Shown: piece after piece, positions 10,556 through 15,179 of the stretch
Layout of the letters: each line of letters begins with the position of its first letter
Position numbering within the stretch: the first letter of the stretch is position 1
Program-made: the position numbers and the translations under genes
The notes under the pieces: model-generated
Told to the model about the DNA's origin: nothing
Databases searched by the model: none
Seen by the model: only the letters and a program-made list of their open reading frames with translations
Assembly (NCBI GenBank): GCA_041288045.1
Contig: JBGGMM010000213.1
Span: forward strand, 1-20,072
Source of the DNA: Pseudobdellovibrionaceae bacterium
Lineage (GTDB): Bacteria; Bdellovibrionota; Bdellovibrionia; Bdellovibrionales; Bdellovibrionaceae
Direction: 5' to 3'
Length of the DNA: 20,072 bases

Positions 10556-10582
10556 TCAAGTTTTGATGCAATGCGTCGAAGA
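10556..10582 (+). promoter_or_regulatory. Sigma-28 (FliA)-type promoter of flagellin 1
   Basis: TCAAGTTT-N11-GTCGAAGA versus consensus TAAAGTTT-N11-GCCGATAA. Confidence 0.7.
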
Positions 10583-10669
10583 GTGGGGTGACTACTGAAC
10601 GAGGACTTTTGCGTATCTGTGCTAGCGACCTTCGTCTTGTCTCATGTCGGGACAGAAGGGGTGCTGAAA

Positions 10670-11497
10670 ATGGGTTTACGTATCAACACGAATCTGGCGA
10701 GCCTAGCCGCTCAACGCCAGATCAGTTTGTCGCAAAGGCAAGCTGAAGGAACAATGAAAGCTCTCGCGAGCGGAAATCGGTTCGCCAACCGGAGTGAAAG
10801 CTCGGCGGATTTCTCTATCGCTGAACATCTCCGTGGACAGATTGCGGGTATTAAATCCGGCAAGATGAATGCCGAGAACGCGCAATCATTTATTCAAGTC
10901 GCAGAGGGCGGGCTGAACGAACAAAACAATCTTTTGATTCGCATGCGTGAATTGGCTGTGCAAGCCGCAAGCGATACTTTCTCTGATCAAGAGAGAGAGT
11001 TCCTCAACTCGGAATTTGAGCAGCTCCAACAAGAGGTGGATCGCATTGCGCTCACCACTCAATTCGGAAGTCAGAAGCTTCTCGCTGGGGAATCGCGAGA
11101 GTATGATTTCCACGTCGGTGCCTATGGGGGCGCTGAGAATATTATCAAATACAAATCAGAGACAAATACCAGGGCGGGCGAACTGGGCGTTGATGGCTTA
11201 ACAGTCAGTGATAAGTCAGACGCCAGGGATTCTTTGGAATCCATCGACGAAGCACTCACTAAGATCGCTTCGGCCCGATCCGGTTTCGGTGCCATTGATG
11301 CTCGATTGAATTCAGCTGTGAACAGCTCAGGAGTCATGGTTGAAAACTTGGAAGCGGCCAGATCAAGAATCGCCGACACCGACATCGCACAAGCGGTGAG
11401 CGATTTCTACCGCAACCAAGCCATGCAACAATACCAAGTCTCGGTCCTCAATGAAGCCAACCGCTTCCCAGGCTCCGTCATCCGCCTCATCGGTTGA
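10670..11497 (+). CDS. fliC: Flagellin 1 (divergent, 275 aa)
   Basis: MGLRINTN start, IQVAEGGLNE, RMRELAVQAASDT, NLEAARSRIADTD. Confidence 0.93.
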   Translation: MGLRINTNLASLAAQRQISLSQRQAEGTMKALASGNRFANRSESSADFSIAEHLRGQIAGIKSGKMNAENAQSFIQVAEGGLNEQNNLLIRMRELAVQAASDTFSDQEREFLNSEFEQLQQEVDRIALTTQFGSQKLLAGESREYDFHVGAYGGAENIIKYKSETNTRAGELGVDGLTVSDKSDARDSLESIDEALTKIASARSGFGAIDARLNSAVNSSGVMVENLEAARSRIADTDIAQAVSDFYRNQAMQQYQVSVLNEANRFPGSVIRLIG

Positions 11498-11498
11498 G

Positions 11499-11523
11499 GG
11501 GTGCCTTTCTCTTTTTCCTTCAC
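11499..11523 (+). repeat. 25-bp REP-like repeat, copy 1
   Basis: GGGTGCCTTTCTCTTTTTCCTTCAC, identical to 12978-13002. Confidence 0.9.
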
Positions 11524-11537
11524 CCGACGTGTCATTT

Positions 11538-11569
11538 AAAGTGCCTGCTGGATCCCGGCAGGCACTTTT
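11538..11569 (+). terminator. Intrinsic terminator after flagellin 1
   Basis: AAAGTGCCTGC...GCAGGCACTTTT hairpin with a T-tail. Confidence 0.8.
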
Positions 11570-11718
11570 CGTTTGGAGAGGTCCAGTCTCGATCGGACCA
11601 TGGTCTAGGCAAAACTGAGACAAACTAGACCTTGGTCGAAAATATTTTTTTTGGAAATTTCCTTTATTAAATCCGATACAAGACGCGCTGCGCAATAACT
11701 TCTACTGGACCTAAGTCC

Positions 11719-11745
11719 TTTAGTTTCCTGGACCTTCGCCGAGAA
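11719..11745 (+). promoter_or_regulatory. Sigma-28-type promoter of flagellin 2
   Basis: TTTAGTTT-N11-GCCGAGAA. Confidence 0.7.
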
Positions 11746-11948
11746 GTTACATGAACACGTTGGAGCAACCCGACAGAAAGCCAAAGGACCTCGTTCAGTA
11801 GTCAGTTCGAGAATCCTGAAAGCCCAAAGCGGCTCAAGTTCCTGGTTAAAGAGAGTCACCTCTTTGGCCTGGGGACCCACTCCAGCAAACAACAATGTTT
11901 TTCAAAAGGAAAAAACAACACAAACAGTGCGTTTGTAGGAGGAACTAT

Positions 11949-12776
11949 ATGGGCTTAAGAATTTCGACGAACATGCCGTCGATCTCAGCACAACGGGTGC
12001 TGCAGACTCAACAACGGCGAATGGAATCTGCGACTCAAAAATTGGCTTCCGGAAGCAGAATTGTGCAAGCTGCTGACGATGCCGCAGGTCTGGCGATTTC
12101 AGAATCTTTGAAAGGTCAGATTAGAGGTATTGCGCAGGCACGTAACAACGCCTTCAACGCTGGATCGGCGATCCAGGTTTCTGAAGGTGGATTGAATGAA
12201 ATCAATAACATCCTGGTTCGATTGCGCGAATTAGGAATCCAATCAGCATCCGATAATATCGGTCAGAAAGAGCGAATGTTCCTTGAAGAGGAATCTCAGC
12301 AGCTCTTGGCAGAAGCGAATCGTATCGCCTTGACCACTCGGTTTGGTGATAAGCTTTTGCTTGATGGTTCTGGTGGAGAACAAGAATTCCACGTCGGTGC
12401 TTTCGCTGGCGAAGAGAACGTGATCCGTTACACTCTTTCGACAGATGCTCGAGCTTCCGAATTGGGAATTGATAGCATTGACATGTCAGAAAAATCTTCG
12501 GCTCGTGATGCCCTTGGCATCGTCGACGGAGCTCTTGATAAAATCGGTCAGATGCGAGCGAACTTTGGTTCGATCCAAAGCCGACTGAACTCCACAGTTT
12601 CCAACTTGGATATTCAGTATGAAAACTTGAGTGCTGCGAACTCTCGAATCAGAGACACAGACGTTGCGAAAGAAACTGCTGAGATTGCTTCAGCGTCGAT
12701 CTTGCAACAGGCAGCGGTCGGAGTTTTGGCTCAAGCCAACACTTTCCCTGGTGTCGCGCTCAAACTGATCGGGTAA
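11949..12776 (+). CDS. fliC: Flagellin 2 (275 aa)
   Basis: MGLRISTN, SGSRIVQAADDAAGLAISE, NLSAANSRIRDTDVA, VLAQAN. SD AGGAGG. Confidence 0.96.
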   Translation: MGLRISTNMPSISAQRVLQTQQRRMESATQKLASGSRIVQAADDAAGLAISESLKGQIRGIAQARNNAFNAGSAIQVSEGGLNEINNILVRLRELGIQSASDNIGQKERMFLEEESQQLLAEANRIALTTRFGDKLLLDGSGGEQEFHVGAFAGEENVIRYTLSTDARASELGIDSIDMSEKSSARDALGIVDGALDKIGQMRANFGSIQSRLNSTVSNLDIQYENLSAANSRIRDTDVAKETAEIASASILQQAAVGVLAQANTFPGVALKLIG

Positions 12777-12878
12777 TCGAAAAACCACTGATGGGCCCTG
12801 GAACTTTCCAGGGTCCACTCTTGAAGTGGAAAATCGAATCCATTTTATACTTTGATCATCGATTTCCGACTTGAAGAG

Positions 12879-12976
12879 ATCGTGAACCATTTAAGGATTT
12901 TGAGGAGTCGATCAGCACAGATACGAAATTCCTCATTAAGCCCGCCCTTGGGAGATTCCCTCCCAAGGGTTTTTTT
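12879..12976 (+). ncRNA. Candidate sRNA or 3'-UTR-derived RNA antisense to the flagellin-1 leader
   Basis: Weak sigma-28-like promoter (12846-12872), a hairpin whose loop carries most of a 12-nt perfect complement to 10612-10623, and a strong terminator. Confidence 0.45.
12944..12976 (+). terminator. Intrinsic terminator
   Basis: CCCTTGGGAG / attcc / CTCCCAAGGG followed by T7. Confidence 0.88.
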
Positions 12977-12977
12977 A

Positions 12978-13002
12978 GGGTGCCTTTCTCTTTTTCCTTC
13001 AC
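12978..13002 (+). repeat. 25-bp REP-like repeat, copy 2
   Basis: GGGTGCCTTTCTCTTTTTCCTTCAC, 8 bp from the RAYT stop codon. Confidence 0.9.
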
Positions 13003-13010
13003 TCGGCGCA

Positions 13011-13646
13011 TTAAAGCCGCCGCTTTTCCAACTCAGCTTCGCAGTTGCGATTTTTATCTTTGGCCAGTTTGAACTCTCCTTTTCTGAGAGCCTTTCCAAC
13101 AATTTCCCAATCCTGTTTTTCAGTGGCGCTATTGAGCCACTTTAGATTTCCGTCCATATCTTCCATCAGTGGATCCTCCTCAACGGGAATCACTAATTTC
13201 TTTTTTCCCACCAATCCGTGAAGAGTCGAGTAGGGATAACTTTCAGTGTGATGGACGCTGCCGACCTCGACCGGATTTCGGTACACGTATTTGTAGGCAT
13301 GCATGTAGTAGTGATAGGACGTGATCAAGCATTTGAAATTGCGCTGACCGTAGATCCGATTTTTGCGACCGGTTCGCCGGCCGATCTCTCGACTTGTTTC
13401 TGTCATGAGCCACCTCATTGCTTTTCCAAGTGTTCCAGTTGAGTCCGTTAAAATCAGATGAAAGTGATTGGTCATCAAAACGAAGCAATGGATTTTGATT
13501 CCATACGCGTGATGGATGAAGAAGAGTTGTTCTTCGAAAATTTCCCAGACTTCACCTAGGTCCAGTTCGAACCACTCTCGATTATTTGTCCGGGCTGTGA
13601 CGTGGTACGGACAGTCTGTTCTGTGGGCTGGGATTTTTCGCGACAT
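13011..13646 (-). mobile_element. REP-associated tyrosine transposase (RAYT, Y1/HUH family)
   Basis: YHVTARTNNR, HUH motif VLMTNHFHLI, catalytic YVYRNPV, YPYST. SD GAGGTG precedes ATG at 13646. Flanked by inverted 25-bp repeats. Confidence 0.88.
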
Positions 13647-13690
13647 GATCACCTCGTCTGCAGACTTCTCCAAATTTCATGCTGAGGTGT

Positions 13691-13715
13691 GTGAAGCAAA
13701 AAGAGAAAGGCACCC
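13691..13715 (-). repeat. 25-bp REP-like repeat, copy 3 (inverted, 1 mismatch)
   Basis: GTGAAGCAAAAAGAGAAAGGCACCC. Confidence 0.88.
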
Positions 13716-13867
13716 TCTATTAAAGTCGGGGTCTGGCTGGACTGGATCTTTGGAGGACCTGGGGATTTTGGTCCTGATTTCCAGACTGAGGTCTAGTTCA
13801 TGCTGAGATTTTCTGCGACGAAGGTCTAGTTCGCACTGGACCCTGGTCCAGTTTCGCTGGACTCGAC

Positions 13868-13894
13868 TAAAGACTCCCTCGACCTCGCCGAAAG
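13868..13894 (+). promoter_or_regulatory. Sigma-28-type promoter of flagellin 3
   Basis: TAAAG at 13868 and GCCGAAAG at 13887-13894, with canonical TAAA-N15-GCCGA spacing. Confidence 0.8.
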
Positions 13895-13900
13895 GTAAGG

Positions 13901-14167
13901 CAAGCAAGTAGATCGAAAGTCGAAAGACGGATCGAGAGAATGTTCGGGTGTGACTGCCTGAGCAGGATCGTTGAGTGATTGTGAGTGCGAAAGCACCCTC
14001 AGAACTCTGAAGTGATGTCGAGCGATGATTGGTTTACTCCAACGTGTTCAACCCAAGTGGCAAGGAATGCCCACTCTCGAAAATAGCCCAAAGTGGCTAA
14101 GGGGTTCGTGTAGGTTACGAACTCGACGAAAGTCTTGGATGGATTCATCAATTATTGGAGGTCCCTT
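13901..14167 (+). promoter_or_regulatory. Long structured 5' leader of flagellin 3 with CsrA-type sites
   Basis: GAAA tetraloop hairpins (13919-13928, 13985-13996, 14125-14134), GGCA-AGGAA-TGCC hairpin (14059-14071), ATGGA at 14139. Confidence 0.6.
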
Positions 14168-15001
14168 ATGGGAATGAGAATTACAACAAACGTCGCGTCG
14201 ATCAATGCACAAAGAAGCTTGTCGACCACACAAAAAGAGATCAGCAAGAGCTACGCACAGCTCTCTAGTGGATCTCGTATCACCAAAGCTGCTGATGATG
14301 CCGCCGGTTTGGCCATCAGTGAAAACTTGAAATCACAGATCCGATCCTTCACTCAAGCCAGCCGAAATGCGAATGACGGGATCTCGATGGTGCAAGTTGC
14401 AGAAGGTGGACTCGGAGAAATTTCTAACATCCTCACTCGCCTCAGAGAATTGGGTATTCAATCAGCCTCAGACACTGTCGGAGAGCGCGAACGGGGATTT
14501 ATCAACAAAGAGGTCGATCAATTGAAAGCAGAGGCTCAGCGTATTGCCAAAACGACTCGCTTTGGAAGCACCAACCTTCTTGATGGCTCTGGACAGATGT
14601 TCGATATCCAGGTCGGTATTTACAACGATGATTTCGAAGATCGTGTGAGCTTTGATCCGTCTCAGTTAGACGCAACTGCCGCCAACCTCGGAATTGAAGA
14701 TTTGGATTTCAGTCAGAAAGAGGGCGCACAGACCGCACTCTCGGTTTTGGACAATGCTCAAGGCTTGGTTTCCGGTTTCCGCGCCAATATCGGTGCGCTT
14801 CAGAACCGATTCTTCTCAACAGTTGAGAATCTCGGTGTTCAGCATGAGAACTTGTCAGCAGCGAACTCGCGAATCCGTGATGCGGACATCGCGCAGTCCA
14901 CAGCTGAGACCGCTCGAAACTCGATTCTTTTGAATGCTTCCACAAGCGTTCTCGCACAGGCCAACAACAGTCCTCAATTGGCTTTGAAACTGATCGGGTA
15001 A
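14168..15001 (+). CDS. fliC: Flagellin 3 (277 aa)
   Basis: MGMRITTN, LSSGSRITKAADDAAGLAISE, RNANDGISMVQVAEGGL, SRIRDADIA, VLAQAN. SD GGAGG. Confidence 0.97.
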   Translation: MGMRITTNVASINAQRSLSTTQKEISKSYAQLSSGSRITKAADDAAGLAISENLKSQIRSFTQASRNANDGISMVQVAEGGLGEISNILTRLRELGIQSASDTVGERERGFINKEVDQLKAEAQRIAKTTRFGSTNLLDGSGQMFDIQVGIYNDDFEDRVSFDPSQLDATAANLGIEDLDFSQKEGAQTALSVLDNAQGLVSGFRANIGALQNRFFSTVENLGVQHENLSAANSRIRDADIAQSTAETARNSILLNASTSVLAQANNSPQLALKLIG

Positions 15002-15154: not shown

Positions 15155-15179
15155 GTGAAGGAAAAAGAGAAAGGCACCC
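15155..15179 (-). repeat. 25-bp REP-like repeat, copy 4 (inverted)
   Basis: GTGAAGGAAAAAGAGAAAGGCACCC, the exact reverse complement of copies 1 and 2. Confidence 0.9.

Follow-up and report, generated by a model that had tools for sequence, protein, structure and literature searches.

Conserved complementarity between the leaders of tandem flagellin genes in Bdellovibrionales suggests pairing of flagellin transcripts in trans

In filaments built from several flagellins the mix of subunits is ordered and fixed, and what determines the order is still for the most part an open question. Small RNAs (sRNAs) are reportedly linked to sigma-28 and sigma-54 in Campylobacter jejuni. As set out in the sections of the reports on which we draw here and below, the Vibrio cholerae sRNA FlaX is processed from the 3' untranslated region (UTR) of flaA, represses flaB and alters filament composition (PMC11879080); it is associated with ProQ and has several binding sites, including a ribosome standby site (PMC11879080). 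Sigma-28-dependent, UTR-derived sRNAs, namely UhpU, MotR, FliX and FlgO, are described for Escherichia coli (PMC10578931). For Bdellovibrio bacteriovorus HD100, Karunker et al. 2013 reported eight attack-phase sRNAs (PMC3627812). One of them, APsRNA3, is 128 nucleotides (nt) long (561,854-561,981, + strand), has a FliA promoter and reaches 14,726 reads per kilobase per million in attack phase (PMC3627812). It lies directly upstream of the flagellin gene Bd0604 (562,130-562,954; Table S1), which is followed by Bd0605, a putative transposase, and the flagellin gene Bd0606; the passages of that paper concerned with APsRNA3 assign it neither a target nor a function (PMC3627812). Here we analyse a contig of 20,072 nt from a Pseudobdellovibrionaceae bacterium (GCA_041288045.1, JBGGMM010000213.1, in full; hereafter the window), in which the leaders of three flagellin genes, fla1, fla2 and fla3, are complementary to one another in a chain.

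The window is contig C213 of a 2.89-Mb assembly that is 83% complete, and its three flagellin genes lie in tandem on the + strand, each encoding Flagellin_N and Flagellin_C domains (Pfam). An initial annotation of this DNA had proposed that the 5' end of the fla2 mRNA (M2) is antisense to a site in the fla3 leader (M2'). Direct reading and a repeat search find the 14-nt exact reverse complement (11752-11765 with 14037-14050) right to the base, as is its extension to 22 positions (11752-11773 with 14029-14050), made up of 19 Watson-Crick pairs, one G-U pair (position 21) and two mismatches (positions 15 and 18). M2 starts, as had been described, at the seventh base after the -10 octamer of the fla2 promoter, the spacer being 6 nt, and it adjoins a block complementary to the 5' end of fla1 (10589-10620 with 11773-11804; 32 nt, 84% complementary), whose exact core proved in the repeat search to be 16 nt long (10589-10604 with 11789-11804). 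We refer to this pairing of fla1 with fla2 (M1 with M1') as arm 1 and to that of fla2 with fla3 as arm 2. The longest genome-wide + strand complement of the first 30 nt of the fla2 transcript is the proposed partner site (14 nt), and that of the first 30 nt of the fla1 transcript is 11789-11804 (16 nt); the M2 14-mer occurs three times in the assembly. We consider it probable that these sites represent a conserved RNA-RNA pairing in trans between flagellin leaders, in which the 5' end of one leader seeds the next and by which the paralogues would be coordinated post-transcriptionally.

Conservation of the complementarity among relatives had been named beforehand as the test of this proposal. 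A 68-nt query spanning the fla2 promoter and M2 has matches in 108 of 301 Bdellovibrionales genomes, which belong to 60 of 103 genera, while a 261-nt promoter-leader query matches 35 of 61 relatives, with the first ~70 nt best conserved. Promoter and M2 form the best-conserved part of the leader, M2 being more conserved than the promoter spacer. A pattern of 22 specified bases, covering the -10 box and the motif, retrieves 35 stretches from the one-genome-per-species GTDB collection, all of them assigned to Bdellovibrio, Bdellovibrionaceae, Pseudobdellovibrionaceae, Bdellovibrionales or Bdellovibrionota. We compiled 100 regions, 95 of which are centred on fla2 orthologues (96 with the window). 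The pipeline placed the promoter upstream of a same-strand flagellin gene at 89 of these 96 loci; on inspection, the remaining seven either share this arrangement, with a promoter that has diverged further, or are cut off by the end of a contig. M2, at two mismatches or fewer, follows the -10 box in 72 of the 89, with the 6-nt spacing in 63 of those 72. Among loci with both fla2- and fla3-type genes, 61 of 63 possess both M2 and M2', and they represent 34 genera; as exceptions, L058 has lost M2 and M2' together while keeping arm 1, and L065 has a degenerate M2. The distance from M2' to the ATG ranges over 22-165 nt in the orthologues and is mostly 79-124 nt.

The sequence of arm 2 drifts, and its pairing is kept. 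Pairs were counted by script with both sites in fixed register; this replaced RNAduplex on 34-nt seeds against shuffled leaders, the z-scores of which were noisy because large loops were allowed. Across 61 loci, positions 2-11 comprise 610 cells, with 591 Watson-Crick pairs, 19 G-U pairs and none that cannot pair; position 1 is unpaired in 17 of the 61, positions 13-14 are mixed, and past position 15 pairing is at background. Changes on both sides that keep the pair occur, at genus level, at positions 1, 2, 3, 4, 5, 7, 8, 12, 13 and 14: at position 1 in g15, at 2 to A in g1, g16 and g65 and to T in g10 and g15, at 3 to T in g10 and g21 and to G in g65, at 4 in g16, at 5 in g16 and g36, at 7 in g29 and g103, at 8 in g65 and g80, and at 12-14 in several genera. 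Compensatory examples are TAAAC/TAAAC, GTAAC/GTAAC, TGTAC/CGTAC, TGAAT/TGAAT, ACATGT/ACATGT and CAGACACATT/TAGACACATT. Differences on one side only, at positions 2-11, are without exception of the G-U or U-G type (16 genus-level cases, at positions 2, 4, 8, 9, 10 and 11), and none is of the A-C type, although the A and C positions do change when both sides change together. Within genomes 12.97 of 14 positions pair, against 12.07 (standard deviation 0.09) with permuted partners, a value reached in none of 10000 permutations. M2' had been located with both the M2 of the genome in question and the consensus; a rerun with the consensus alone found the same site in 60 of 61 cases, and again 0 of 10000 permutations reached the observed value. 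A variant M2 occurs in 16 distinct pairs; in 15 of them, all but that of L067, pairing covers 10 of 10 positions. Pairing sets in at position 2, the eighth nt after the -10 octamer, and the alignment with the predicted transcription start that had been pointed out earlier is borne out, pairing beginning where sigma-28 spacing places +1.

Arm 1 covaries even more than arm 2. In 52 distinct genome pairs, in which a fla1-type 5' end (TGACTGCTGAA...) faces a fla2 leader (...TTCAGCAGTCA), positions 1-11 are paired almost without exception, and at positions 12-19 all four bases occur and pairing continues, with 41-46 of 52 Watson-Crick pairs at positions 12-15. Within genomes a mean of 17.35 of 20 positions pair, compared with 14.54 across genomes, and the within-genome value was not reached in any of 10000 permutations. 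Complementarity is conserved across relatives for both arms, and the picture of a two-armed fla2 leader, receiving the fla1 5' end and offering its own 5' end to fla3, holds in both its pairings. The comparison indicates that both arms of this hub are under selection for complementarity, and we regard selection on pairing in trans as highly probable. Side observations concern where the chain might lead. Beyond fla3, the best complement of the fla3 5' end is a 14-mer within a large open reading frame (ORF) on contig C245, which we took as chance and rejected. The leader of the flagellin gene at C64:30707 contains AGTAGTCACC (C64:30669-30678), ~30 nt before the ATG, which complements 10 nt of the fla1 5' end (GGTGACTACT); this may be a further flagellin target of the fla1 seed, and a match of 10 nt could by itself be chance. 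There is also a 13-nt match between the fla3 leader and sequence upstream of a C108 flagellin gene.

The pairing could be real and yet involve a different partner. The fla3 site might be bound by a separate small RNA bearing a copy of M2 (G000:C167:44597 and its relatives), leaving the fla2 5' end a role in cis only. Such a copy does lie in a 410-nt intergenic region of contig C167 (C167:44597-44611) with 15 nt complementary to the fla3 site, related loci bear their genome's own variant (TGTAC in G016, ACATGT in G017, which has five copies, and GGAT in G033), and a helix in cis is the consensus fold of the fla2 leader, as described below. That helix needs positions 8-14 only, whereas positions 2-7 of fla2 covary with the fla3 site, and the C167-type locus is poorly conserved (in a homology search, matches in 7 of 61 genomes, mostly short pieces). 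We judge this explanation unlikely as a replacement for pairing by the fla2 5' end itself, with which it is compatible rather than exclusive. Forward copies of M2 are found at several non-flagellin intergenic loci, often near AGTCAC (L023:1501, which is the C167 copy, L021, L030, L047, L085, L086, L087 and L034). About 100-130 nt downstream of those copies are a sigma-28-like promoter (CTTTAG, an 11-nt spacer, CCGAATA) and two hairpins, a conserved one of CGTAAA...TTTACG and one with CCUCC that resembles a terminator. These copies are possibly an sRNA family belonging to the same network. In genus g10 (L063, L104, L124, L140 and L147) a second M2-like copy is present at ~+195 of a long fla2 leader, after an A/T-rich stretch, for example CATCGTACGTTGGTGG and CATAGTACGTTGTTGG in L104.

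A still less likely possibility is that one protein site is present twice, as M2 and as M2', and is read by a late-flagellar DNA-binding regulator or by an RNA-binding protein such as CsrA, and that their complementarity is a by-product. The stronger conservation of M2 relative to the promoter spacer, the GGA that it contains, the presence of CsrA and FliW genes and the further forward copies at non-flagellin loci would all fit such a site. However, a double-stranded site that is readable either way gives no strand asymmetry, and we count 16 one-sided changes of the G-U type against none of the A-C type. Neither a protein nor a recombinase acting on double-stranded DNA would give reason for one copy to accept G-to-A and T-to-C but never A-to-G or C-to-T. 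This G-U-only asymmetry therefore speaks for paired RNAs rather than for a DNA or protein site. The same changes recurring at seven positions would in addition need repeated shifts in specificity, no single RNA-binding protein can recognise a sequence as well as its complement, and arm 1 pairs through positions at which all four bases occur.

The weakest alternative, that M2 and M2' are hix-like DNA inversion sites flipping a 2.3-kb segment with fla2, a Y1-transposase-like gene and the fla3 promoter, is scarcely credible: inverted repeats do flank a segment with a transposase-like ORF (13011-13673; Pfam Y1_Tnp), and the arms of an inversion system also covary, but none of the 96 fla2 loci has the inverted arrangement (the order promoter, M2, leader, gene is constant), only 12 of 61 genomes have that ORF, the sole candidate for a linked invertase gene, between the sites, where it is found in either orientation, Y1/HUH enzymes are to our knowledge not invertases, the spacing of the sites varies from 1.2 to 7.2 kb, the G-U compatibility of all one-sided changes at positions 2-11 would not be demanded of a DNA site, an inversion would cut both genes off from their promoters, another contig carries a third copy of M2, and arm 1 obeys the same logic with a long covarying pairing. 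The initial annotation had preferred RNA pairing to inversion, and the compensatory changes, the G-U-only one-sided changes and the lack of an inverted locus in our set support that choice. As to the ORF itself, it is IS200-like, on the minus strand between fla2 and fla3, and is flanked by an inverted 25-nt repeat, GGGTGCCTTTCTCTTTTTCCTTCAC, resembling repetitive extragenic palindromes (REPs). The repeat is found at 11499-11523, 12978-13002, 13691-13715 and 15155-15179 and in 34 copies in the assembly, a layout like that of REP-associated tyrosine transposases; its outer inverted pair brackets fla2 to fla3. In HD100, the 'putative transposase' Bd0605 occupies the equivalent place between flagellins.

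The fla2 leader has a described counterpart in APsRNA3. The published sequence starts ACGTTGGGC, continues with a hairpin with a CAATCAC loop and GCTCCAACC, and ends in a T run (Fig. S1, PMC3627812). This order of modules is that of all aligned fla2 leaders, and Bd0604-Bd0605-Bd0606 follow one another as do fla2, the transposase-like gene and fla3 in the window. Bd0604 and Bd0606 go by the names fliC1 and fliC2. On the strength of its sequence, APsRNA3 is the orthologous RNA, corresponding to the 5' module of a fla2-type leader. By analogy, the A/T-rich stretch at 11897..11904 is a possible 3' end of a short leader RNA in the window, because APsRNA3 ends in a T run after its CTCCAACC. A full-text search that did not extend to subscription journals found no further mention of the APsRNAs in the literature beyond PMC3627812. 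None of the three leaders in the window matched Rfam at E-values up to 1. The only hits in the search, which we rejected, were an alphaproteobacterial ar14 hit at 11485-11570 (27.3 bits against a gathering score of 58.8, E 0.13), which lies over a REP copy and the fla1 terminator hairpin and is ascribed to chance, and a mir-2209 hit below its gathering score.

For 36 diverse fla2 leaders, RNAalifold returned a single consensus helix, in which the 3' half of M2 pairs with an element CTCCA(A/G)C ~125 nt downstream (11880-11886 in the window). The same element is complementary to the ribosome-binding region of fla2, GTTGGAGG in many families and GUUUGUAGGAG in the window. At minimum free energy (MFE), the element is bound to the Shine-Dalgarno (SD) sequence in 20 of the 36 full leaders, to M2 in seven and to neither in nine, and in the window leader it is paired with the SD region. 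M2, the CUCCAAC element and the SD sequence would thus be predicted by folding to enter a three-way competition. The cis element recurs in longer form in the M2' site of fla3 (CUCCAACGUGUUCA).

When the window RNAs are folded together, both trans helices are present in the dimer MFE structures, with a gain of -15.7 kcal/mol for the fla2 5' part with the fla3 leader and of -29.4 kcal/mol for the fla1 leader with the fla2 5' part. M2' lies within a conserved segment of fla3 leaders, CTCCAACGTGTTCAACC. By eye, M2' is followed in most orthologues by two hairpins, the first with an AAGGA-type loop and the second with a GUAGGU loop, and after these come a further GGA and a GGAGG SD sequence. The fla3 leaders (14056-14161 in the window, and orthologues) show AAGGA(U) and (A/U)GUAGGU loops and a GGAUU before the SD sequence, as well as a small hairpin, UCCC-UUAU-GGGA, around the start codon. 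Genes for csrA and fliW are adjacent on contig C64 (23983-24138, 90.7 bits, and 24412-24771, 130.8 bits). Control of fla3-type leaders by CsrA is plausible, and it may interplay with the pairing. Hfq (PF17209) was not found in the 83%-complete assembly.

Several points weigh against pairing in trans as we propose it. The case in this organism rests on the comparison of sequences. A single 14-nt inverted repeat in 20 kb is unremarkable alone: 51 exact 14-nt inverted word pairs occur across the window, compared with a mean of 3.9 and a maximum of 10 in 30 dinucleotide shuffles, and this count includes REP copies, terminators and overlapping words, most of it being due to REPs and terminators. 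Since chance inverted repeats are not rare, significance rests on conservation and covariation. Here, kinship makes counts of cells overstate independence, and because the genomes are related we have given genus-level counts; the compensatory case of L067 is uncertain, as it hinges on the genome's own motif for the location of the site. The cis helix hardly varies, its seven pairs being mostly invariant or G-U with a change on both sides in two of the seven, and blocking M2 shifts the pairing of the element with the SD sequence modestly, from 20 to 23 of the 36 leaders. M2' lies far upstream of the ATG without covering the ribosome site, and RNAalifold on 42 fla3 leaders gave no consensus helix, so that the idea of M2' masking fla3's own SD sequence, which we considered, finds no support. 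Finally, the published 5' end of APsRNA3 is motif position 6, ~5 nt downstream of the start expected for sigma-28, and if it is the sole 5' end, then positions 1-5 would not be RNA in HD100. In the start-site table for HD100, FliA promoters set +1 at about the eighth nt after the -10 box, and for Bd0606 the +1 is the final A of GCCGAAAGGTATGTCA, the end of its promoter (PMC3627812). We think that the RNA usually includes motif positions 2 and 3, because in g10, the genus nearest HD100, transcripts should by the sigma-28 rule start at position 1, and these two positions covary between the sites.

How might pairing of these leaders act? Each flagellin gene would be transcribed from its own sigma-28 (FliA) promoter, and the 5' end of each leader would serve as the seed for the leader of the next gene, M1 pairing with the fla2 leader at 11773-11804 and M2 (11752-11765/73) with the fla3 leader at 14029-14050. 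The acting RNA could be the full-length fla2 mRNA, a leader RNA of ~130-150 nt of the APsRNA3 type, or both. The 5' half of M2 (UGAACAC) would be free and its 3' half (GUUGGAG) held in cis by CUCCA(A/G)C, an element that would alternatively mask fla2's own SD region. Binding of the fla3 leader, begun on the free half and extending over 14 or more base pairs, would then displace the cis helix and couple the translation of fla2 to the level of fla3 mRNA; it could also remodel or protect the fla3 leader beside its GGA-loop hairpin. The net outcome would be a post-transcriptional order or ratio of the flagellin paralogues. The displacement step, by which the anti-SD element is toggled, is offered tentatively, as it derives from predicted folds. 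More speculative again, and rather doubtful, is a protein-free relay from fla1 to fla2 to fla3 mRNA, in which each invasion flips a switch of 5' seed, CUCCAAC and SD sequence and the mRNAs themselves time or ratio the flagellins in the filament. The regulatory consequence, be it flagellin order or ratio, an anti-SD toggle or a true ternary complex, is unproven.

Features of the flagellin locus in the window, with coordinates
Feature	Position	Strand	Details
M2, 5'-terminal seed of the fla2 leader RNA	11752..11773	+	core TGAACACGTTGGAG 11752-11765; predicted +1 ~11753
M2', target site in the fla3 leader	14029..14050	+	core CTCCAACGTGTTCA 14037-14050; leader coordinates ~+136 to +149; 118 nt upstream of the ATG
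M1, 5'-terminal seed of the fla1 mRNA	10589..10620	+	core TGACTACTGAACGAGG 10589-10604; begins 6 nt past the -10
M1', fla2-leader target of the fla1 5' end	11773..11804	+	core CCTCGTTCAGTAGTCA 11789-11804; predicted largely in a hairpin loop
Hairpin AAAGAG/CTCTTT with AGTCAC in the loop	11848..11865	+	(C)AGTCAC(C) loop kept in fla2 leaders; fold and alignment, columns ~120-128
Cis element CTCCAGC(AAAC)	11880..11890	+	predicted to pair with M2 3' half GTTGGAG 11759-11765 or the fla2 ribosome-binding region
A/T-rich stretch and T run TGTTTTTC	11897..11904	+	similar block after CTCCAAC in most leaders
Hairpin directly after M2'	14056..14075	+	AAGGAAU loop with GGA resembling a CsrA site; by eye
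fla1 sigma-28-type promoter	10556..10582	+	-35 TCAAGTTT 10556-10563, 11-nt spacer, -10 GTCGAAGA 10575-10582; sequence reading
fla1 gene	10670..11497	+	275 amino acids; Pfam Flagellin_N and Flagellin_C
fla2 sigma-28-type promoter	11719..11745	+	-35 TTTAGTTT 11719-11726, 11-nt spacer, -10 octamer GCCGAGAA 11738-11745
fla2 ribosome-binding site and gene	11937..12776	+	AGGAGG 11937-11942; gene 11949-12776, ATG 11949; 275 amino acids; Pfam
fla3 sigma-28-type promoter	13868..13902	+	-35 TAAAGACT, 11-nt spacer, -10 GCCGAAAG 13887-13894
fla3 ribosome-binding site and gene	14155..15001	+	TTGGAGG 14155-14161; gene 14168-15001, ATG 14168; 277 amino acids; Pfam

The promoter consensus is that of Karunker 2013 (PMC3627812). 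The fla1 orthologues have the same upstream promoter layout as fla1 of the window, and fla3-type promoters of g10 are nearly identical to the fla3 promoter. The +1 of fla3 is placed by analogy at A 13902, because the start site of Bd0606 is mapped at the eighth nt after GCCGAAAG. A promoter and terminator scan restricted to sigma-70 gave nothing informative in the window. Short repeats of the forms CTGGACC, CTAGACC, GGTCCAG and GGTCTAG, in both orientations, crowd 11580-11737 and 13735-13865, upstream of the fla2 and fla3 promoters; one copy is inside a promoter spacer (CCTGGACC), and the repeats are kept in relatives. They may be sites at which a transcription factor binds.

A full-text search (subscription journals and bioRxiv supplements were outside its range) brought up no account of flagellin genes pairing leader to leader, whether in Bdellovibrio or in other organisms, and the comparative evidence is pointing to an RNA-to-RNA link between flagellin genes that is so far undescribed. 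The signal suggests that the flagellin mRNAs of a predatory order may read each other through the first bases of their transcripts. If so, RNA cross-talk between flagellins, so far the case of FlaX and flaB, would be extended to a 5'-end seed and a chain of three genes, and the orphan Bdellovibrio sRNA APsRNA3 would be given a function. The locus would also offer a compact and testable case of mRNA-mRNA regulation, with natural compensatory mutants and a culturable relative.

Comparison with known systems, as far as the sections used here describe them, brings out what the leaders share with these and what they do not. APsRNA3 has the FliA promoter, the position upstream of Bd0604 and the module order of the window fla2 leader; the genus of the window differs in having a third, upstream flagellin, the source of arm 1, which is not adjacent in the g10 loci examined. 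With FlaX the flagellin leaders share the principle of flagellin-to-flagellin cross-talk, in that an RNA from one flagellin transcript pairs with the mRNA of a paralogue. However, FlaX originates from a 3' UTR, whereas the seed proposed here is the 5' end of a sigma-28 leader, with a single far-upstream target and three genes in a chain. The E. coli sRNAs are likewise FliA-dependent, UTR-derived and engaged in base pairing in flagellar synthesis, but they have no sequence or structural likeness to the leader module, and their dependence on Hfq is inferred. In systems of the DsrA/RprA-rpoS type, an sRNA activates translation by an anti-antisense mechanism. What would be alike in both is a three-way competition between 5' element, internal anti-SD element and SD sequence that a partner in trans can tip; here, in contrast, the 5' element and the anti-SD element sit in the regulator RNA itself, and the predicted effect of blocking M2 is modest. 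This cis competitor, apparently built into the regulator, would also set the flagellin leaders apart from the nearest described systems.

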